DNA of 32,000 nucleotides from an archaeon GW2011_AR10 (GCA_000830275.1 CP010424.1:1050001-1082000), one strand, 5' to 3'; positions 3,574 to 24,338 are shown, numbered from the stretch's first letter. Numbers and translations: made by a program. Notes: generated by a model not told the origin, from the letters alone.

Positions 3574-3687
3574 TGCGACCGCCGGGAATTGAACCCGGGC
3601 CACAACCTTTTTGCAAAACTTCTTGAAAGCCAGAACTTTAGCCCTAGTTTTTGGCAAGGTTGCATCATGCCATTAGACTACGGTCGC
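3574..3687 (-). tRNA. tRNA-Gly (anticodon GCC) with a ~43-nt intron at the canonical 37/38 position
   Basis: Read on the minus strand. Acceptor stem is GCGACCG/CGGTCGC with discriminator A. D-arm is GTCT-AATGGCA-TGAT. Anticodon stem is CAACC/GGTTG with loop TTGCCA|intron|A. T-arm is CCGGG-TTCAATT-CCCGG. Total length is 114 nt against about 71 nt mature. The intron 3' end GTTTTG can pair with CAAAAC at the 5' splice region, which looks like a helix-bulge arrangement. Confidence 0.85.
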
Positions 3688-13357: not shown

Positions 13358-13486
13358 TCACAATTCTGCAAGCTCAGCATAGAATGCTTTGTGTTCTTTT
13401 AAGTGCCTTTTAACAATGTTTTTAACATCCTTCCATTCTGCCATTGTTATTGGCTCTCTTTTTCCTTTTATTTTCATTTCTTTCAT
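13358..13486 (-). CDS. Possible 42-aa protein immediately downstream of doc
   Basis: Hand translation gives MKEMKIKGKREPITMAEWKDVKNIVKRHLKEHKAFYAELAEL. Its ATG begins 1 nt after the doc TGA (GAT TGA A ATG). There is no family support. Confidence 0.3.
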   Translation of the reverse strand: MKEMKIKGKREPITMAEWKDVKNIVKRHLKEHKAFYAELAEL

Positions 13487-13487
13487 T

Positions 13488-13850
13488 TCAATCGCCTCTT
13501 GTGTGGTTTGCAATCCAGGTTACAATCTCTTCAATATCTGTTTTTGGTTTAACCGACCAAACAACAACGTTAAATCTTGAAGTTGAGCCAACTTCTAATT
13601 TCTTCCCGTTAAGTTCGAGAAAAGCCAACATTGATTCAAATGCCGTTCTCTTGTTTCCATCCACAAAAGGGTGCCTTCTTGCAATCTCTATTAAGATGGT
13701 CGCGGCCTTCCTGTCGATGCCTCTGATATCGGCCACCTTGAATACGATGTGGTCAATTTCACCTTCGCTTCTTATTGAACCATCCGTAAAATGCTTGTTG
13801 ATATTGATAATAACTTCCTTTGAAAGCGTTTTTGCAAAAATTCTCGCCAT
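13488..13850 (-). CDS. doc: Doc-type Fic-fold toxin (death-on-curing family)
   Basis: The motif HPFVDGNKRTAF is the Doc variant H.F.[DN][AG]NKR, with K rather than the G of AMPylating Fic proteins. I trimmed the start to ATG 13850 (MARIFAKT). A TTTAAA box lies 25 nt upstream, which suggests a leaderless transcript. Confidence 0.8.
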   Translation of the reverse strand: MARIFAKTLSKEVIININKHFTDGSIRSEGEIDHIVFKVADIRGIDRKAATILIEIARRHPFVDGNKRTAFESMLAFLELNGKKLEVGSTSRFNVVVWSVKPKTDIEEIVTWIANHTRGD

Positions 13851-13854
13851 GCAC

Positions 13855-13880
13855 AAATTCTGTAAACTACAGAATTTAAA
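13855..13880 (-). promoter_or_regulatory. Perfect 10-bp inverted repeat (AAATTCTGTA-N3-TACAGAATTT) overlapping the TTTAAA box of doc; putative operator
   Basis: Both arms were read directly, at 13855-13864 and 13868-13877. TTTAAA lies at 13875-13880. The element sits 5 nt upstream of the doc ATG. Confidence 0.5.
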
Positions 13881-14110
13881 CATATCATTCTGGCGCTGAA
13901 ATAATTAGTAATCCCGCCTCCCGGAGCTGCAATAGCTCTCTGAACCCCTGAAAATTGCGTTTGTCTGGGTTTTATAAGGCTTTGCATGCAGGGATTACTT
14001 ATAACAAACAAAGAAGGACAAAAAATAACCCTATTTTTTTCTTAAGTGAAAAATTATCTGTTAACGCAGGATAGCGTTATTTTCTCTTTCTTGTAATAGG
14101 AGTTGATGAA

Positions 14111-15284: not shown

Positions 15285-16382
15285 ATGATGGGCATTTCAA
15301 AGGTCATTGATGAAGCGGTTTCCTTTATTCATTCGAACGAGCAGAGCAAGAAGGGAATTGCTGAAAAGCTCCTGCCGTTGAAAGGGAAAAAGATTTCTTT
15401 TCCCTCCAAGGAACTGTTAGAGGAACTGCTTGTTTTCCCAGTGCATGGAAAGCCCCTTGAAGGAAAAATAGCAGGCGTTGATTCTGGCTTTGTTGACAAA
15501 AAGCTTGCCTCAGTTGACCTAGTGCTTATTAGGGCAGTTGGGGTTTTGTTCGAATATGAGAAAGGCTTTTTCCGGAAAAGCTCTTATGTGCCGGGCCTTT
15601 ACTCTTTCCCAATGCCGCACCTCTCAAACCATGCATTAGAACTTGACGAGTTTGCCTGCAGCAAGAGCCTTCTCCGCTTAAGGGAAGAGGTTTCAACCGC
15701 AAGGGAAGTGATTGAAAAGTTTTCTCCCGAGTATTGTTTTCTTGACGGCAGCATTGTTCCGCAGTACCAGGACAAGCCGAGAAAAGATTCAGTAATCAAT
15801 GAACTCTACCATTCAATTGTAAGAGAGTTTGAGGATTTGTTTGAAACAGCAGAGAAAAACAAGTGCATTCTTGTCGGCTGTGTGGAGGATTCCAGGGGAA
15901 GCAGGTTCAGGAGCGTCCTCCAAGAGGAAGTGCTGCAGCATGAAAAGCTTTTGCCATCGGAAAAACTGGATTACCTTTTTGATTCAGCGCTTTTGGATTA
16001 CTTGTTAAGTGTCGGCGAGAGAACATGTGCGCTTCATTACACTAAAAACATTTCCCAGCATCCTATCCTGAACGATTTTGATGAGAAGTGGTCCAAAAAC
16101 ATTTTTTCTTTTTACTTGAAGCCATCGCTTTATGACAGGCCGTTAAGGGTTGAGTTCATTAATGGTGCAGGGAACTTAACTGAGAAATCCAGTAAAATTG
16201 CATCAGTTGTTTTTTCGCTCAGCAGCCTTCACCGAGAGTACGCTTTCCCCTCTGTTCTGATTGAAGCTGATTTGCGCGCCCGCCTCAGGCCGGAGGAAAT
16301 TGATGTTGTTGTGAACAAGATAATGGACAAGGTTGCAAAAAACGTTAAAATGAAGCTGCGCAGGGACAGCAGGCCGTTTTAG
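15285..16382 (+). CDS. nurA: NurA 5'-3' nuclease
   Basis: NurA-like acidic motifs are present: IAGVDSGF, CFLDGSIVP, VGCVEDSRGSRF and a C-terminal FPSVLIEADLRARL. The TATA-like TTATTTATATAG lies about 25 nt upstream. Confidence 0.75.
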   Translation: MMGISKVIDEAVSFIHSNEQSKKGIAEKLLPLKGKKISFPSKELLEELLVFPVHGKPLEGKIAGVDSGFVDKKLASVDLVLIRAVGVLFEYEKGFFRKSSYVPGLYSFPMPHLSNHALELDEFACSKSLLRLREEVSTAREVIEKFSPEYCFLDGSIVPQYQDKPRKDSVINELYHSIVREFEDLFETAEKNKCILVGCVEDSRGSRFRSVLQEEVLQHEKLLPSEKLDYLFDSALLDYLLSVGERTCALHYTKNISQHPILNDFDEKWSKNIFSFYLKPSLYDRPLRVEFINGAGNLTEKSSKIASVVFSLSSLHREYAFPSVLIEADLRARLRPEEIDVVVNKIMDKVAKNVKMKLRRDSRPF

Positions 16383-16921
16383 TGATGAAAATGCTGAAGC
16401 CTGAAAGATTTTCAGACGTGGATGAGGCGCTGTGCAGGAGCGCCTTGCCTTTAACTCCGGAAGAAATTGATTTCCTGCACTCTCATGGGGTGAAATCAAT
16501 TGTTTCAATGGAGTCAATGCCTAGGGAGGCTTTTGAGCGAGCAAAACATCTTGGAATAAAGGTTTTCAGCTTTCCACATGTAACATCTGATTCGCTGCCA
16601 ACGGAAAAGGAAGCAAAGCATTTCTTTCAAATAATTCAGTTAACCAAAAAAAGCAAAGGAAAGGTGCTGGTTCACTGCAATATGGGGAGGCAGCGCACAG
16701 GACTAATGGTTGCGGTTTACCTAACAGCAAAAGGTGAAAACCCTTTGAGAGCCTATCAGCTTGCGGGAACGGCCGAGGTTGAAGTTAAAGCGCCTCTTGC
16801 CAAGAACTCCAAAACTCTTAGAAGCATGTTCAAAGAAATAAGTGCTGCAATAAAAATGAAAAAAACGCTGAAACCGCCTGCAAAGAAAAACGCAACCCCT
16901 AAAAGAAGGAGGCTGAAGTAA
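16382..16921 (+). CDS. Cysteine-dependent (CX5R) PTP/dual-specificity phosphatase-fold protein with a Lys/Arg-rich tail
   Basis: The active-site motif VLVHCNMGRQRTG lies at 16664-16702. The upstream PHVTSDSLP may supply the general acid. The C-terminus is KMKKTLKPPAKKNATPKRRRLK. The GTG start overlaps the nurA TAG by 1 nt (TAGTG). Confidence 0.8.
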   Translation: MMKMLKPERFSDVDEALCRSALPLTPEEIDFLHSHGVKSIVSMESMPREAFERAKHLGIKVFSFPHVTSDSLPTEKEAKHFFQIIQLTKKSKGKVLVHCNMGRQRTGLMVAVYLTAKGENPLRAYQLAGTAEVEVKAPLAKNSKTLRSMFKEISAAIKMKKTLKPPAKKNATPKRRRLK

Positions 16922-17024
16922 TTGTTTATGGTGGAAAAATGCACAGGAAAGCAATCAGGGCACTAAGAAAATTTAAAAGCGATATTGGGAGAAAGCTTTC
17001 GAGGTTTGGCAGAGGCGGCAACAA

Positions 17025-17228
17025 ATGAAGGAAGAAAAATTTTTCAGGTTCTGCCCTAACTGCGGTTCAATGAATGTGAAGCCGCTTTATTTCGGCTTAA
17101 GCCAAGATTTTGCCGCTCATTCCCCTGAAATGAAGTGCATTGACTGCGGTTTTAATGGTTTTATTGTTGAGTCAACCGCTGAACAAATTGCGGCTTTCAG
17201 GAAGGAAATGAAGAGAAAGGTGCACTGA
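17025..17228 (+). CDS. Small 4-Cys zinc-ribbon protein
   Basis: CPNCGS ... CIDCGF motifs are present. Its stop TGA is directly followed by the herA ATG. The AATTTAAAAGCG box lies about 45 nt upstream. Confidence 0.6.
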   Translation: MKEEKFFRFCPNCGSMNVKPLYFGLSQDFAAHSPEMKCIDCGFNGFIVESTAEQIAAFRKEMKRKVH

Positions 17229-18767
17229 ATGAGTGAAGAAATAGGAACAGTTATAAGCGGTCAGGAAAGCCCCTCTCCTTCCAAGCTGGAATTTGTGGTG
17301 AACAAGGGACTGGTGCACAGGGGCCAGTTTGTGGAAATGGATTCAAGCGACGGAACTCTAGTGGCTTTAGTGGTTGACGTTTACAAAACCAACCGCTACT
17401 TTGAGAGGGCAGAATCCGTCAAGGAGTTTGAGGCATCCGGCAGAAAAATGTTTGAGCAGTTTCCAACAAGCGAATGGGAGTACCTTGTTGCGCAATCCCG
17501 GCTTCTTGGGGTTTACACTAATGAAGGCCTGATTAAGCGCCTGACTTTTCCGCCCAGCCCAGGCACCCGCGTCAGGCCAGCTGTTGCTTTAACAATGGAA
17601 AAGTTTCTCGGCTTCGAAAAAGATGGCCTGCAATTAGGAAGGGTTGAGCACCCTGAAATGCCTGTTGAATTGAACATGACCCGGCTGCTCAAAAAGCACC
17701 TTGCAATTCTTGCAATGAGTGGTGCAGGGAAAAGTGTGGCATCAAAAGTCATTCTTGAAGAGCTCTTAGATAGGGGCAAGGAAAAAGGGCGGATTGCAAT
17801 TGTTGTAATGGACCCTCATGGAGAATACACTTCCTTTGCTGAGCCCGCTGCCGGAAAGAAGAGCTTCAAGGACTATTCCTCTAAAACAATGGTTGTTAAG
17901 GCTCGGGACATCAGGATCGGCGTTCCAAAAATCAGTGTTGCAATGATTGCAAGCATTATTCCTGGCTTGAGCGCAACGCAGAGAAGGGAGCTGGAAAGAA
18001 TTCTCTCAAGGCTGAAGAATGAAATGAGGCAGGGCTTAGGCCCATTTGACTTGGCTACCTTAAGGAATTCCATTTCGCAGGATGAAGAAATAAAGGATGC
18101 AACAAAAGGCGTTCTTGTCAGCTGGATTTATTCACTCGAGGATCTGAGGCTATTTTCTAAAACTGATTCGCCTAGCATTAACGATGTTGTCAAGCAAGGA
18201 AAACTCACGGTTGTTGATTTGTCAGAAATAGTTGATATGAGAAAAAAGCAAATAATTGTCTCGTACTTTTCTTCCAAGTTGTTCAATGAGAGAAGGCAGG
18301 CCAGAATACCGCCGTTTCTTCTCGTGATAGAGGAAGCGCATCAGTTTTGCCCTGAGCGCACAAGAGAGGAAGCAGCAATTTCAAAGAAAATAATTGAAAC
18401 AATTGCAAGGGAAGGAAGAAAATTTGGTGCATCGCTTTGCCTTATTTCGCAGAGGCCGATTAATCTTTCAACTACTGCGTTGTCACAGTGCAACACGCAT
18501 CTCATATTGCGTGTCACAAACCCTTATGACTTAAAGCATATAGGCGAGAGCTCTGAGGGCATTGATTACAAGAGCCAAGAAATGATTACTTCGCTTAAAG
18601 TTGGTGAAGCTCTCATTGTTGGGGAAGCAGTTAATCAGCCGGTTTTTTTCAAGGTCAGAAAGAACAAATCAGCAGAATCAAAGCACGAGATTTCCTTGGA
18701 GGAAGCCGCACTGAAATTCGAGGAAGGAAAAGAGAAAGAATTAAAAGAAACTGAAGAGTTCTTATAG
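17229..18767 (+). CDS. herA: HerA hexameric DNA helicase/translocase (FtsK-HerA superfamily)
   Basis: The N-terminal barrel-like segment is GTVISGQESPSPSKLEFVV...GQFVEM. Walker A is AMSGAGKSV. Walker B is FLLVIEEAHQF. A later segment is GASLCLISQRP. The SD AAGGTG lies 6 nt upstream. Confidence 0.9.
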   Translation: MSEEIGTVISGQESPSPSKLEFVVNKGLVHRGQFVEMDSSDGTLVALVVDVYKTNRYFERAESVKEFEASGRKMFEQFPTSEWEYLVAQSRLLGVYTNEGLIKRLTFPPSPGTRVRPAVALTMEKFLGFEKDGLQLGRVEHPEMPVELNMTRLLKKHLAILAMSGAGKSVASKVILEELLDRGKEKGRIAIVVMDPHGEYTSFAEPAAGKKSFKDYSSKTMVVKARDIRIGVPKISVAMIASIIPGLSATQRRELERILSRLKNEMRQGLGPFDLATLRNSISQDEEIKDATKGVLVSWIYSLEDLRLFSKTDSPSINDVVKQGKLTVVDLSEIVDMRKKQIIVSYFSSKLFNERRQARIPPFLLVIEEAHQFCPERTREEAAISKKIIETIAREGRKFGASLCLISQRPINLSTTALSQCNTHLILRVTNPYDLKHIGESSEGIDYKSQEMITSLKVGEALIVGEAVNQPVFFKVRKNKSAESKHEISLEEAALKFEEGKEKELKETEEFL

Positions 18768-20006: not shown

Positions 20007-21542
20007 ATGGCTCCCAATATTGTGTTCGTTTCGAACGCCTCTTACTTGCCCGAAAAAAGGCAAATTGTAGTTGAGTTCTCCAACAAGGATAAAAAAATTT
20101 CCAGGGGGTTCTCGTTTTTTCCTTTTGCTTTCATTTCAAGGCAGAGTGTTAGTGCCATAGCGCTCCATGAACTGGTTTTGCAGCATAACCACAAGCGGTT
20201 CAAGTTTGAGGTCTTGGATGATAGCTCCACAATGCTTGTGGCAGCAACTTTTGACGACTTAAAAATTATTTCAATTCTTTTAGAAGAAAAATTTGGCTTT
20301 AAGCCTTTGCTTCTTAACCCAGTTACACAGTTCTTTGCTGAAAGAAACTGGAGTTTCTTTGATTCCTTTCAGTTAATTGACGGCGAACTGGAAAAAGTTC
20401 ACGGCATTGAATTGCCTGCAACCGCTTCATTTTTCCAAGGCAATTCTGTTGAGGATTTATTTGGTGAGCTGCAGGAATCCGGCACTAATGCAGAAAAAGA
20501 ATTTATCCAAAAAATATGCCTTTCAAACATTTTAAGCGTGCCGCCGCAGCTTGTTCCAAGCGAATCATTTCTTCAGGCAGAAGCCCTTCTGGAAAAAATT
20601 TTTTTCAAGAGCCATTTTCCTGTTAATGTCAGAAAACCTGAAAAAGAGTTCAAGGAAAAAAGAGCTGAAATCAGGGGCTTGTTTTCTGATGTTGCAGAGT
20701 TAAGTTTTCAGGGGGTTTGGAGCACGCTTTTAACTTTTCCTTTTTTTAACCTCGGTTTTGAGTCAATAAACTGCTCTTGCTGCAAGCCAGATAGTGTTGA
20801 GGAAACAAACCTGCTGCCCAATTCACTGGTTAACTGCAGGTTTAATGTTGATGGCACGTACTTTGTTCCAACAATGGGTGACTGGGGCACAGAATTCCAC
20901 AATTCCAGGCCTTCGCAGGCTGAAAGAAACTTTTACAAAAAGGAATGGAACCTAAGCTCTTTTCCAGCAGGCCCTTTTTTCAGAGGGCAGCTTGAGCTCT
21001 TGCCTTTTCCTGATGCAGTGCTACTTAAAAGCAATGAAACTGTTTCATTTGCAAGTACTGGCCACATACTTAAATGGTTCTGTAAAAAACGCGAGTCATT
21101 CCTCTCAGTGGAAGTTTCTGCCCTAAACAGGCAAGCTGCCCTCCATCTCAAATCCCTTGAATCACTGAACAAGCAACTGATTTCTTCTCACGGCATTCTT
21201 TTCTCTTCAAGAGAAAAAACCGGTTTTGGTGTTGCTTTCAGGGAATCTTTTGCTGAATCAATTAATTCCTTGCTGTTTCAGCTGCCTGTGGTTTTGTCCT
21301 CAAAAAATTCAAGGTTTTACAGCTACGAGCTGGCAGAAGCACTAGACTGGATTCAGGCAAGTGTTCTTCAAAACTTCAAAGATTTTGCAGAAAAACAGGG
21401 CTCAAAGCAGATTCACCGCGATTCGAGCAGGGTTTTTGTCAAAACAAAAACCCCACTTCTGCTAGTGGAAAGGTTTTCCTCAAAGCAAGGCATTCCAAGG
21501 CCATTGGTAAAGAAAACCCTAAAAATAGCCTCCTTCGGCTGA
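20007..21542 (+). CDS. Truncated, catalytically inactivated family-B DNA polymerase-like protein
   Basis: By eye it is collinear with archaeal PolB. NIVFVSNASYLPEKRQIVVEF..FFPFAFI matches the N-terminal domain. AELSFQGVWSTLLTFPFFNLGFESINCSCC occupies the motif A position (DF.SLYPSII..hN.sp.T), but the Asp is missing. LISSHGILFSS matches the motif B region. RFYSYELAEALDWIQAS...KQIHRDSSRVFV occupies the motif C position (Y.DTDS), but DTD is replaced by RDS. Most of the exonuclease domain and the thumb are absent. The track ORF starts at GTG 19911, overlapping the CaCA stop. ATG 20007 is the more likely start. Confidence 0.55.
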   Translation: MAPNIVFVSNASYLPEKRQIVVEFSNKDKKISRGFSFFPFAFISRQSVSAIALHELVLQHNHKRFKFEVLDDSSTMLVAATFDDLKIISILLEEKFGFKPLLLNPVTQFFAERNWSFFDSFQLIDGELEKVHGIELPATASFFQGNSVEDLFGELQESGTNAEKEFIQKICLSNILSVPPQLVPSESFLQAEALLEKIFFKSHFPVNVRKPEKEFKEKRAEIRGLFSDVAELSFQGVWSTLLTFPFFNLGFESINCSCCKPDSVEETNLLPNSLVNCRFNVDGTYFVPTMGDWGTEFHNSRPSQAERNFYKKEWNLSSFPAGPFFRGQLELLPFPDAVLLKSNETVSFASTGHILKWFCKKRESFLSVEVSALNRQAALHLKSLESLNKQLISSHGILFSSREKTGFGVAFRESFAESINSLLFQLPVVLSSKNSRFYSYELAEALDWIQASVLQNFKDFAEKQGSKQIHRDSSRVFVKTKTPLLLVERFSSKQGIPRPLVKKTLKIASFG

Positions 21543-22059: not shown

Positions 22060-24123
22060 TCATTCAATGCCTTGGCTGACAGGCACGGTTACCCCATTTT
22101 CGTCTTTTTCTCTTTCAAGAATGTAGAGGGTGCTGCTTGCAGCATTGGTCATTTCCCTGTCATGGGTTATGATAAAGATTTGCTCCACTAATTCAGGCAG
22201 ATGCTCTTTCATCATTTTGCTTAAACCTGAGACAGTGCTGCTGTCAAGGTTGTGGGTTGGCTCGTCTAGAATAAGCCAGCCAAGGTTCTGGGTTAAGACA
22301 AGTGAAACCGCTATTCTAACGGTTATTGCAGCTGCAGAGCGCTCTCCACCGCTTAATATGCCTTCAGTGTTCACCCACTTTCCATCCATTTCCTTAACCT
22401 CAATTTCATAGTTTCCTGCTTCATTTATGTGAACTCGTGCACTCACATAGTCATTGTAAGGGTAAATTCTGGGCCATATGTCCTCCATTGCATCATTTAC
22501 TGCGTCAATCAAAGTTGTCCTCAGCTCTGTTTGCGCAGCCCTCAGCGCGTTAATGAACAGCGAAAACTTTTCATTTGTCCCCTCAATTTCCTTGGTGGTT
22601 TCCTCCAGCTCCCTGATTTTTTCAAGCTGTTGTTTCACTGCCTTGATGTGCTGGCTTAGTTCTGCTATAAATTCTTCATCCAAAGAAATCTCTTTTCTAA
22701 CCGAACTTGCTGACTCTTTTAATTCAGTTGCAAGGTTGCGTTTCTTCTGCAGTTTTTCTTCATCAAACTCAAGGCCACTCAACTGCTTTTCAAGTTTCTC
22801 TTTTTCTTCTTTTAGGGCAATTGCTTCTTGCTGTTTTTTTCCAGCGTTTTTTGCCTTTTCCAGAAGCTCCCGTAGTTCAAGTCCATGCTCCTTTAATTTT
22901 TCAATTGCTTCTTCTTTCAGCCTGATATTCTCCTCGTTTTCTGAGATTTTTTCCACAGCTTGTTTTTCCTTTCTTTCAACTGTTTTCATTTCCTGAATAA
23001 TTTTTTGCCGTTCAGCGTTGTTTTCATCAATCAACTCTTTCTTTGTGTGCTCTTCGAGTTTCCTCCTGCACACAGGGCACTCGGCTTTTGCTTCAGCCAA
23101 TCCAACTGAAGACTCTTTAAGCTCAAATGCTTTCTGTTCTAACAGCCCTTTGCTCTGAAGCAAGTGGTTCAATTCTTTTTGCAGCAACTTTTCATTCTCC
23201 TTCAGTTCCTTTGCCTGCTTCTCTTTTTCTGCGACTTTTATTTTCAGCTCCTTGGAATTCGCTTCAATTTCTTCAAGGCTCTTTCCCATAGTTTTTGCCC
23301 TGATTTCTTCAAGGCTTTTCTGTGTTTCCTCTATTTTGGTTTCAGTTTTAACAATCAGTTCCTTAAAGAACTTGAACTCTTTCTCCTTTTTCTCCATCTC
23401 TTCCACTGCTTTGCTCACTTCAAGCAGCTTGGATTTCTTTTGTTCCAGCGATTTTTTAAGCTCGCCTATTTTTTCTTCTTTCTCTTTTCTTTTTTTCTCG
23501 GTTTCCTCCAGCTGCTTTGAGTCAAATGACTTTCTTTGCTCTTCAACCCATTTTTTTCTTTCCAAAACATCCCTTTTCAGCCGGTTCAAAACGCTTATGG
23601 CATTGCTTCTTACTCTCTCATACCGGTTCAGCTGCAGCAGGTCATCAAACTTTTCTTTCCGCTGCGAAGCATTAAGCTTCAAAAAAAAGTCTATCTGGTT
23701 TTGTTCAGAGTATACGCCTCTGCTGAACAGCTCGTAAGGAATCTCGGTTAACTCCTCTATTTTTCTAGTGACATCAGTTGGTTGCGGTCCGGCAATAAGC
23801 CGGTCTTCCTCAAAAAGCTTCGCTTGGTTAGAGCCGTGCCTTTTCACTATTCTTTCAACAGAATAATTCTTCCCGTTGTAGTCAAACCCGACTTTGATTA
23901 TGGATTCGCTTTGGATTGTTGGCTTTGCCATTATAATTTCTTCCAGCTTCAATGCCCGTGCATTCAGTTCAGGAAAAGTCCCATACAGGGCAAAAGAAAT
24001 CGCGTTCATAACTGAGCTTTTTCCAGAGCCCATTTTTCCGATTAAGACATTTGTGCCTTTGCCAAACTCAAACTCTGACTTGGCGTGACTGCGCCAGTTC
24101 TCCAAATAAACTCTCTTAATCAT
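22060..24123 (-). CDS. rad50: Rad50 SMC-like ATPase (short form, 687 aa)
   Basis: The N-terminus is MIKRVYLENWRSH. Walker A is GKMGSGKSS. The zinc-hook CPVC lies at 23068-23079. The signature motif is LSGGERSAAAI and Walker B is LILDEPTHNLD. I trimmed the start to ATG 24123, which has the SD GGGGGT 8 nt upstream. The track start at 24150 would run into the repeat region. Confidence 0.9.
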   Translation of the reverse strand: MIKRVYLENWRSHAKSEFEFGKGTNVLIGKMGSGKSSVMNAISFALYGTFPELNARALKLEEIIMAKPTIQSESIIKVGFDYNGKNYSVERIVKRHGSNQAKLFEEDRLIAGPQPTDVTRKIEELTEIPYELFSRGVYSEQNQIDFFLKLNASQRKEKFDDLLQLNRYERVRSNAISVLNRLKRDVLERKKWVEEQRKSFDSKQLEETEKKRKEKEEKIGELKKSLEQKKSKLLEVSKAVEEMEKKEKEFKFFKELIVKTETKIEETQKSLEEIRAKTMGKSLEEIEANSKELKIKVAEKEKQAKELKENEKLLQKELNHLLQSKGLLEQKAFELKESSVGLAEAKAECPVCRRKLEEHTKKELIDENNAERQKIIQEMKTVERKEKQAVEKISENEENIRLKEEAIEKLKEHGLELRELLEKAKNAGKKQQEAIALKEEKEKLEKQLSGLEFDEEKLQKKRNLATELKESASSVRKEISLDEEFIAELSQHIKAVKQQLEKIRELEETTKEIEGTNEKFSLFINALRAAQTELRTTLIDAVNDAMEDIWPRIYPYNDYVSARVHINEAGNYEIEVKEMDGKWVNTEGILSGGERSAAAITVRIAVSLVLTQNLGWLILDEPTHNLDSSTVSGLSKMMKEHLPELVEQIFIITHDREMTNAASSTLYILEREKDENGVTVPVSQGIE

Positions 24124-24164
24124 TAAACGGTAACCCCCGTTCGGCTGCAAAGTCAGCCGGCACC

Positions 24165-24266
24165 TTGTACGTGTCCTTCCTTCGGAAGGACGGTAGTTCG
24201 TTCTCAGTTTGCAAGTTGTACGTGTCCTTCCTTCGGAAGGATGGTAGTTCGTTCTCAGTTTGCAAG
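24165..24266 (+). repeat. Two tandem 51-nt repeats, each with an 8-bp inverted repeat GTCCTTCC-TTC-GGAAGGAC
   Basis: The unit TTGTACGTGTCCTTCCTTCGGAAGGACGGTAGTTCGTTCTCAGTTTGCAAG occurs twice, at 24165-24215 and 24216-24266, with 1 mismatch. That mismatch (C to T) turns G-C into G-U on a + strand RNA but into an A-C mismatch on a - strand RNA. Confidence 0.9.
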
Positions 24267-24338
24267 TTGTGCCGTGCGTTGCATGGCATTGGCCTGCCTT
24301 TTAGGTCTCGCACAATTGGTGTCATAACTAAAATTATA

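Follow-up and report, generated by a model that had tools for sequence, protein, structure and literature searches.

HerA and NurA form the long-range resection motor of archaea. In most hyperthermophilic archaea their genes are clustered as herA-mre11-rad50-nurA (PMC2288612); the first-pass annotation of the DNA considered here had taken this four-gene cluster as classical for archaea, whereas it is documented for that group and not for archaea in general. The DNA is a stretch of 32,000 nucleotides from the archaeon GW2011_AR10 (GCA_000830275.1, CP010424.1:1050001-1082000), called the window below; positions given without a locus label are counted from its first letter. It carries nurA and herA with genes for a protein tyrosine phosphatase (PTP)-fold enzyme and a small zinc-ribbon protein between them, and rad50 lies apart. 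The question is whether these two proteins fill the place of Mre11, serve as partners of HerA-NurA or are there by chance. We consider it fairly probable that the region is a nurA-herA end-resection operon typical of its lineage, in which the zinc ribbon would be an accessory protein of HerA (or of HerA-NurA) and the PTP a facultative add-on, possibly with a regulatory role. The PTP does not take the place of the Mre11 nuclease.

The operon and its conservation

The open reading frame (ORF) listing and profile searches give the head-to-tail order nurA, CX5R phosphatase, four-Cys zinc ribbon (67 aa), herA:

15285-16382 (+): nurA, 365 aa; Pfam NurA (PF09376) E=2.8e-13, residues 61-333
16382-16921 (+): PTP-fold Cys phosphatase, 176-179 aa depending on the start codon; P-loop VLVHCNMGRQRTG = HCX5R
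16922-17024 (+): 103-nt spacer; TATA-like box TTTAAAAG, read from the sequence, at 16973-16980, 52 nt upstream of the zinc-ribbon ATG
17025-17228 (+): C4 zinc ribbon, 67 aa, 'long' subtype; Cys10/13/38/41, CPxCGS...CxxCG[FY]xG followed by a basic C-terminal helix
17229-18767 (+): herA, 512 aa; Pfam DUF87 (HerA central domain) E=5.7e-32, NCBIfam HerA E=5.6e-45

NurA is the 5'-3' nuclease partner of HerA. Its D66, D154, E201/D202 and H259, the acidic and His catalytic residues of an RNase-H-like fold, are invariant in an alignment of 25 sequences (A1). HerA is, judging by its sequence, a hexameric FtsK/HerA-type DNA translocase/helicase: Walker A (SGAGKS) and Walker B (VIEEAH) motifs are visible in the translation, the NCBIfam match stays under the equivalog cut-off, and the HAS-barrel match is weak (0.0057). 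The source is a groundwater metagenome-assembled genome (MAG) of the Iainarchaeia ('Ca. Diapherotrites', DPANN). NurA has 556 homologs, named NurA in Diapherotrites MAGs and bearing names of the form 'Candidatus Diapherotrites / Iainarchaeum'; the identical protein occurs on groundwater MAG contigs (GCA_013332025.1, GCA_018304495.1, JGI 3300025309 and others), with the gene order unchanged in each assembly.

The relatives surveyed comprise three looked-up contexts and 80 species-representative loci, the latter fetched by NurA alignment with ±10 kb of flank; they were analysed by tblastn and iterated hidden Markov models, and the species-level total is 84 loci (individual loci carry L numbers). 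A class-wide block is found in them, nurA - slot - herA - (variable) - ~510-aa protein - rpoK - rps17e - rad50 - EF-1beta, with the last two genes on the opposite strand. The nurA-herA locus is single-copy and universal (84/84 species) and syntenic with the core genes PTH2, rpoK, rps17e, rad50, EF-1beta and the CCA enzyme gene. Counts of what the slot contains, and of herA lengths, refer to the 73 complete loci that show nurA together with the herA N-terminus.

The gene junctions look consistent with operonic coupling. At the nurA/PTP junction (...ccg ttt TAG TG ATG AAA ATG...) a GTG start shares one nucleotide with TAG, the 1-nt overlap (TAGTG) that the first-pass annotation had described; public gene calls start the PTP at in-frame ATGs, 16385 and 16391 (3 and 9 nt downstream), and the two genes are tightly packed either way. 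The same annotation was also right about the 103-nt spacer with a box of its own and about the zinc-ribbon TGA that directly abuts the herA ATG. The TTTAAAAG box is a possible internal promoter for the zinc ribbon and herA. The spacer also holds a very basic ORF of 29 codons (MHRKAIRALRKFKSDIGRKLSRFGRGGNK, 16939-17028, +), whose TGA overlaps the zinc-ribbon ATG (ATGA).

As to herA itself, 15/73 ORFs are long, at 747-1695 aa (L012, L019, L020, L024, L026, L027, L031, L032, L034, L035, L045, L054, L055, L057 and L064). In several (for example L012, L024, L026, L027, L031, L032, L034, L035, L054 and L064) the homology to the window's HerA picks up again at about residue 170-187, close to the P-loop, as would be expected of one or two inteins in herA.

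Contents of the nurA-herA gap

The occupants of the slot in the complete loci are as follows:

Zinc ribbon only: 37/73 loci
Zinc ribbon and PTP: 9/73 loci
PTP only: 1/73 loci
HAD-like hydrolase: 15/73 loci
Essentially empty, gap <120 nt: 9/73 loci
Other genes only: 2/73 loci

The zinc-ribbon family is present in 46/73 (63%) and the PTP in 10/73 (14%). The ancestral arrangement looks like nurA-(zinc ribbon)-herA without Mre11: the gap accepts insertions, and its commonest and apparently ancestral occupant is a C4 zinc-ribbon protein specific to the lineage. The first-pass annotation had instead described a phosphoesterase slot beside NurA and HerA held by a different fold. The comparison does not support this description, given that nurA-herA without mre11 is class-wide, that the gap is <120 nt in nine loci and that its cargo is varied.

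The repeated arrival of toxin-antitoxin modules in the gap between nurA and herA identifies it as a hot spot for insertion. An AbrB/MazE-like gene with or without PIN (VapBC-type) lies in the slot of L018, L019, L026, L027, L028, L032, L034 and L049, and PemK/MazF plus a partner in that of L052, L063, L068 and L069. Further cargo includes a MazG-like gene, an ORF that looks like GNAT on sequence inspection only, a methyltransferase-like family and proteins of 200-290 aa without assigned function, and gene order inside the slot varies among relatives.

The HAD-like hydrolase (Pfam HAD_2 E=2e-22) is sometimes duplicated and stands directly after nurA, at L009:11108-11776 and in 15 other loci (L051, L052, L065, L068, L069, L073, L075, L076, L078, L080, L081, L084, L086, L088 and L089). 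It is confined to clades without the zinc ribbon, and the two are mutually exclusive on the NurA tree. Motif I of this family reads FDLWxTL, with Trp at Asp+2. In HAD-superfamily phosphatases the Asp+2 residue is the acid/base, and the Trp argues against a canonical phosphatase. The occurrence of PTP and HAD proteins in one slot had been considered as a sign that a phosphatase activity is required there; the FDLWxTL motif and the lost PTP Arg (see below) weaken this idea.

The zinc-ribbon protein

There is strong comparative evidence that the zinc ribbon is functionally linked to herA, since its position is conserved, translational coupling is likely and the family is almost confined to the slot. 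It is a conserved neighbour, lying between nurA and herA in 46 of the 73 complete loci: the last zinc-ribbon gene stops a median of 15 nt before herA (37/46 within -11 to +64 nt), and the family is distributed over most of the NurA tree. Two subtypes exist, a 'long' one of ~60-70 aa, to which the window copy belongs, and a 'short' one of ~37 aa, often in tandem with the short gene preceding the long. The family alignments show no change at C10, C13, C38 and C41, which form two CxxC knuckles. Searched against 5.8 billion proteins, the family profile returned 86 members. The named strong matches are nearly all labelled Diapherotrites, one being from a 'Micrarchaeota'-labelled MAG, and the only strong match with its context looked up lies in the order nurA, small ORF, zinc ribbon, herA; three weaker matches from other phyla have neither herA nor nurA nearby. 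Outside the slot, within ±10 kb of the relatives' loci, one extra copy was noted (L012).

The AlphaFold2 (AF2) model of the protein (predicted local distance difference test, pLDDT, 77.8) shows a ribbon, with four short strands and a C-terminal helix (residues 52-66). Foldseek gave it no significant whole-structure match (best E=0.25), and the family profile matches generic ribbons only, namely RpoM-2 (7oqy_Y, E=3e-8) and HVO_2753-like proteins (E=5e-5). The gene seems placed for co-expression and translational coupling with herA, and its small product would most likely regulate the HerA(-NurA) motor or belong to it as an accessory subunit; it might, for example, dock on HerA or on DNA ends via the ribbon and the basic C-terminal helix.

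The PTP-fold phosphatase

The PTP is an intact, canonical and apparently active member of the small atypical dual-specificity phosphatases (DSPs) of the VHZ/SsoPTP-like kind. It has Pfam matches to Tc-R-P, PTP-SAK, Y_phosphatase2 and DSPc (1e-10 to 8e-9), an intact phosphate-binding loop (VHCNMGRQRTG, HCX5R(S/T)) and a basic C-terminal tail (PKRRRLK). The candidate general-acid Asp lies in HVTSDSLPT, one residue offset from the family consensus PxxDxxxPT. The AF2 model (pLDDT 94.4) adopts the PTP alpha/beta fold, and the best Foldseek matches are VHZ/DUSP23, Tk-PTP, PTPMT1, SsoPTP, PRL, Siw14 and TpbA, with a probability of 1.00 for VHZ, Tk-PTP, SsoPTP, PTPMT1 and Siw14. The top 50 Foldseek matches include no PNKP-type HAD 3'-phosphatase, BVP/PIR1-type polynucleotide 5'-phosphatase or RNA triphosphatase, and there are no polynucleotide-end phosphatases among the PDB sequence matches.

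A word-indexed homolog search returned the protein itself only, and an exhaustive phmmer search over 1.84 billion representatives was used instead. The branch is small (22 clusters at E<=1e-10), and the members closest to the PTP are small DSPs from archaea, with the labels Altiarchaeota, Korarchaeota or unnamed MAG. The 22 nearest relatives all have H97, C98, G101 and R104 and share the invariant HCxxGxxR loop, a 'PL[QR]AY' helix and the basic C-terminal tail. The tail was considered as a docking motif specific to the slot and rejected, as PTP-family members outside the lineage carry it too and other slot proteins do not. PTP-like genes occupy the slot in 13/84 species loci, in several NurA clades and patchily on the NurA tree. 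Outside the slot, the family was found within ±10 kb only once, at L078:7805-8335 (-); this copy, encoded on the strand opposite to nurA and ~1.7 kb upstream of it, is without the catalytic Arg.

The PTP most likely acts on phosphorylated proteins, and the products of the operon itself are plausible substrates. In S. acidocaldarius both NurA and Rad50 are phosphoproteins, as related in PMC6555300 citing Reimann et al. (2013), and their phosphorylation in Sulfolobus makes a regulatory role as a protein phosphatase plausible.

Rad50 and the question of Mre11

The remaining partner of the classical cluster and its upstream repeat lie at:

22060-24150 (-): rad50, 687-696 aa, with a short coiled coil and a CPVC zinc hook; matches to Pfam SMC_N, Pfam Rad50_zn_hook and NCBIfam Rad50 (E=6.4e-63)
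24165-24270 (no strand): 51-nt x 2.1 tandem repeat in the rad50-EF-1beta spacer; Tandem Repeats Finder, 98% matches, score 205

The Rad50 translation contains LSGGE, LILDEP and CPVC, with Pfam matches at E=7.9e-16 (SMC_N) and at 24.6 bits against a cut-off of 24.3 (Rad50_zn_hook); an ATG at 24123 gives the 687 aa of the public gene calls. The gene is convergent with the herA block, 3.3 kb from herA, and its position and orientation are alike in nearly all relatives. Its upstream spacer measures 293-320 nt, and beyond it lies EF-1beta rather than mre11. The earlier description of a rad50 on the other strand, 3.3 kb away and preceded by a repeat-rich spacer without an adjoining mre11, is thus accurate, the repeats being the 51-nt units. 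Each unit holds a short palindrome, TCCTTCGGAAGGA. In L007, rad50 itself has a Pfam Intein_splicing match (L007:10082-10174).

The statement that no ORF of the window carries Mre11 motifs also held when the survey was widened. Metallophos (PF00149) has no match among the ~40 window ORFs. Searches by jackhmmer with P. furiosus Mre11, a probe validated as near-identical to PDB 1ii7, and by a regular expression for calcineurin motifs yielded zero matches in 9,891 ORFs of at least 35 aa from 1.34 Mb of the window and relatives' loci. An extra 10 kb upstream of the window holds no Mre11-like gene either, which brings the genome surveyed to ~42 kb, and the literature searched on Mre11 in the Iainarchaeia lineage yielded nothing. 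The 'missing' mre11 and the 'detached' rad50 are traits of the lineage rather than a filled slot or an oddity of a single genome, because the conserved block never holds mre11 in any of the 84 species-level loci. We judge a true loss of Mre11 unlikely, as Rad50 is well conserved and its zinc hook intact. We regard it as decidedly unlikely that the Iainarchaeia are without any Mre11 and resect DNA ends by Rad50, NurA, HerA and a lineage-specific zinc-ribbon subunit, with optional regulation by the phosphatase; were this true, the zinc-ribbon proteins would be a new dedicated component of an archaeal resection machine independent of Mre11.

Competing explanations

That the PTP-fold enzyme and the zinc ribbon take over the missing role of Mre11 and act directly on DNA ends, such as by clearing 3'- or 5'-phosphates ahead of resection, seems quite improbable. 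The idea draws on the tight packing of the PTP with nurA, on the recurrence of its homologs in the exact slot in several NurA clades, on a basic tail that could bind nucleic acid, on a second hydrolase superfamily (HAD) in the same position in other clades, and on the failure to find mre11, either in the window or across ~1.3 Mb of loci from relatives. However, a Cys phosphatase is unable to provide the endo- and exonuclease chemistry of Mre11, the neighbours of the PTP in structure and sequence are protein and inositol-pyrophosphate phosphatases rather than DNA-end phosphatases, and the HAD occupant has Trp at Asp+2. Moreover, nurA-herA without mre11 is the norm of the lineage, and the slot is often empty. 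A further point against this idea is that the PTP occurs in only ~14% of species. Three other facts count against it and also against the place of the PTP in the resection operon that we favour. The PTP is absent from the closest relative of the window, L007. Most slot PTPs have lost the catalytic Arg, which is kept in the window, L024, L028, L015 and perhaps L032, with the catalytic Cys kept in all slot copies. Finally, the wider PTP family never adjoins nurA or herA outside the lineage (0/82, from 0/2 looked-up contigs and 0/80 metagenome loci, the latter retrieved with a four-sequence alignment). Because it is patchy, absent from L007, often without the Arg and unlinked to herA/nurA in its wider family, the PTP is best described from these comparisons as a facultative, lineage-restricted addition to the operon in a minority of species. 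The earlier proposal that the PTP and the zinc ribbon are dedicated partners of HerA-NurA gains support for the zinc ribbon and only weakly for the PTP.

Three other points tell against the favoured operon reading: since the slot also gathers toxin-antitoxin and unrelated cargo, adjacency alone is weak evidence; the zinc ribbon must be dispensable or replaceable, as the slot is empty in nine lineages and 15 carry a HAD-like gene without it; and the 103-nt spacer with its TATA-like box may uncouple the PTP from zinc-ribbon-herA expression. The cargo (VapBC-like and MazEF-like pairs, MazG-like, GNAT-looking, methyltransferase-like and functionally unassigned genes), the variable gene order and the nine empty slots can be taken further, to mean that the gap is a permissive insertion hot spot and that both proteins are hitch-hikers without a tie to HerA-NurA. 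Agreement between the PTP and NurA trees is only loose (rho 0.28), and the window PTP pairs with that of L024, from a different NurA clade, which suggests lateral movement. For the PTP alone, chance cargo is a serious possibility, although one we put below an even chance. For both proteins together we think it rather unlikely: the zinc ribbon is present in 63% of species and in most parts of the NurA tree, its gene nearly always directly precedes herA, and it is found almost nowhere else (the extra copy in L012 and the one 'Micrarchaeota'-labelled strong match), a pattern of spread, position and near-exclusivity that would be unexpected for random cargo. A last alternative, that HerA-NurA and the toxin-antitoxin-like and enzyme cargo form an anti-virus defence island and not a repair module, is hardly credible. 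HerA does match the 'anti-phage HerA' models of PADLOC and NCBIfam (E ~1e-36 to 1e-50), and toxin-antitoxin modules do accumulate in the slot. Nevertheless, these matches reflect general HerA homology, the best NCBIfam model being the repair-type HerA, and PADLOC matches HerA only, with none for NurA, the PTP or the zinc ribbon. The locus also shows no island-like patchiness; universal, single-copy and syntenic with core genes in 84 species, it bears the signature of a vertically inherited housekeeping operon.

Relation to known systems

The Iainarchaeia locus resembles the HerA-NurA systems of Sulfolobus and Pyrococcus in having the NurA nuclease and HerA (DUF87/HAS-barrel) side by side with a zinc-hook Rad50 nearby, and in its conserved catalytic and Walker motifs. 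Unlike the hyperthermophile herA-mre11-rad50-nurA operon, its cluster is without mre11 class-wide, its rad50 is convergent and parted from herA by the PolB-like ~510-aa gene, rpoK and rps17e, and one or two zinc-ribbon genes precede herA, with PTP, HAD and toxin-antitoxin cargo being optional. The operon is a lineage-specific variant of nurA-herA with a conserved small zinc-ribbon gene, and the zinc ribbon is a candidate new HerA-NurA accessory factor; the literature searched contained no HerA-NurA accessory subunit of this kind. The protein shares the two CxxC knuckles forming a zinc ribbon with the TFS/RpoM C-terminal ribbon, RPA12 and aS21/HVO_2753-type proteins. It differs from generic C4 ribbons in that the herA-linked family has its own signature (CPxCGS...CxxCG[FY]xG and a basic helix) and a near-exclusive position upstream of herA. 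The PTP has in common with SsoPTP, Tk-PTP, VHZ/DUSP23 and PFA-DSP/Siw14 the PTP fold of ~150-180 aa and the HCX5R(S/T) P-loop (Foldseek E ~2e-7 to 6e-6, TM-score 0.6-0.8; sequence E 5e-7 to 8e-5). However, it is only 17-25% identical to solved PTPs and forms a branch of its own, with the 'PL[QR]AY' helix and the basic RRRxK tail, which lies inside a nurA-herA operon in Iainarchaeia only.

A zinc ribbon directly upstream of herA in most species of an archaeal class is a concrete candidate for a resection factor, and a rad50 that is class-wide apart from any mre11 raises the question of whether Rad50 works without Mre11 in reduced genomes. The PTP at most hints at phospho-regulation of resection, as in the Sulfolobus phosphoproteomes.

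Neighbouring genes and other observations

Between herA and rad50, the window contains genes for an Na/Ca exchanger and the ~510-aa protein, followed by rpoK and rps17e:

20007-21542 (+): conserved ~510-aa protein, PolB-like; no Pfam match; follows herA in almost all relatives

Its orthologs, 25-39% identical, occur in the loci of ~70 relatives (L008:14344-15882 is one). In the PDB, a profile built from 30 of them matched nothing but family-B DNA polymerases, at weak E values (0.07-0.28) and over motifs B-C, with YGDTDS replaced, and the family has an invariant Cys cluster (C256, C258, C259 and C359). It was also considered as a cryptic Mre11, which was rejected because it has no Mre11 similarity and only the weak polymerase matches. 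Inactivated family-B DNA polymerases of archaea have reportedly been described by Rogozin, Makarova and Koonin. The ~510-aa protein resembles these in its weak alignment to PolB motifs B-C and in the replacement of the catalytic YGDTDS, but is much shorter than PolB, and with E values this marginal (0.07-0.28) its membership is putative; it is probably an inactivated family-B polymerase-like protein.

Some contigs with the Iainarchaeia-type nurA-herA block (L033, L048, L056, L066 and L064/L065) sit in bins named Falkowbacteria, Chloroflexi/Chloroflexota, Thaumarchaeota and Micrarchaeota, names that are probably due to mis-binning or mislabelling. About 1.4 kb upstream of nurA, the window encodes a Fic/DOC-family protein (13488-13883, -) with a 51-aa ORF (13358-13513, -) immediately downstream, the ends overlapping; the two are possibly a Doc/Phd-like toxin-antitoxin pair. 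Rfam gives a 114-nt tRNA match (52 bits) at 3574-3687 (-), absent from the ARAGORN output, which is probably an intron-containing archaeal tRNA.

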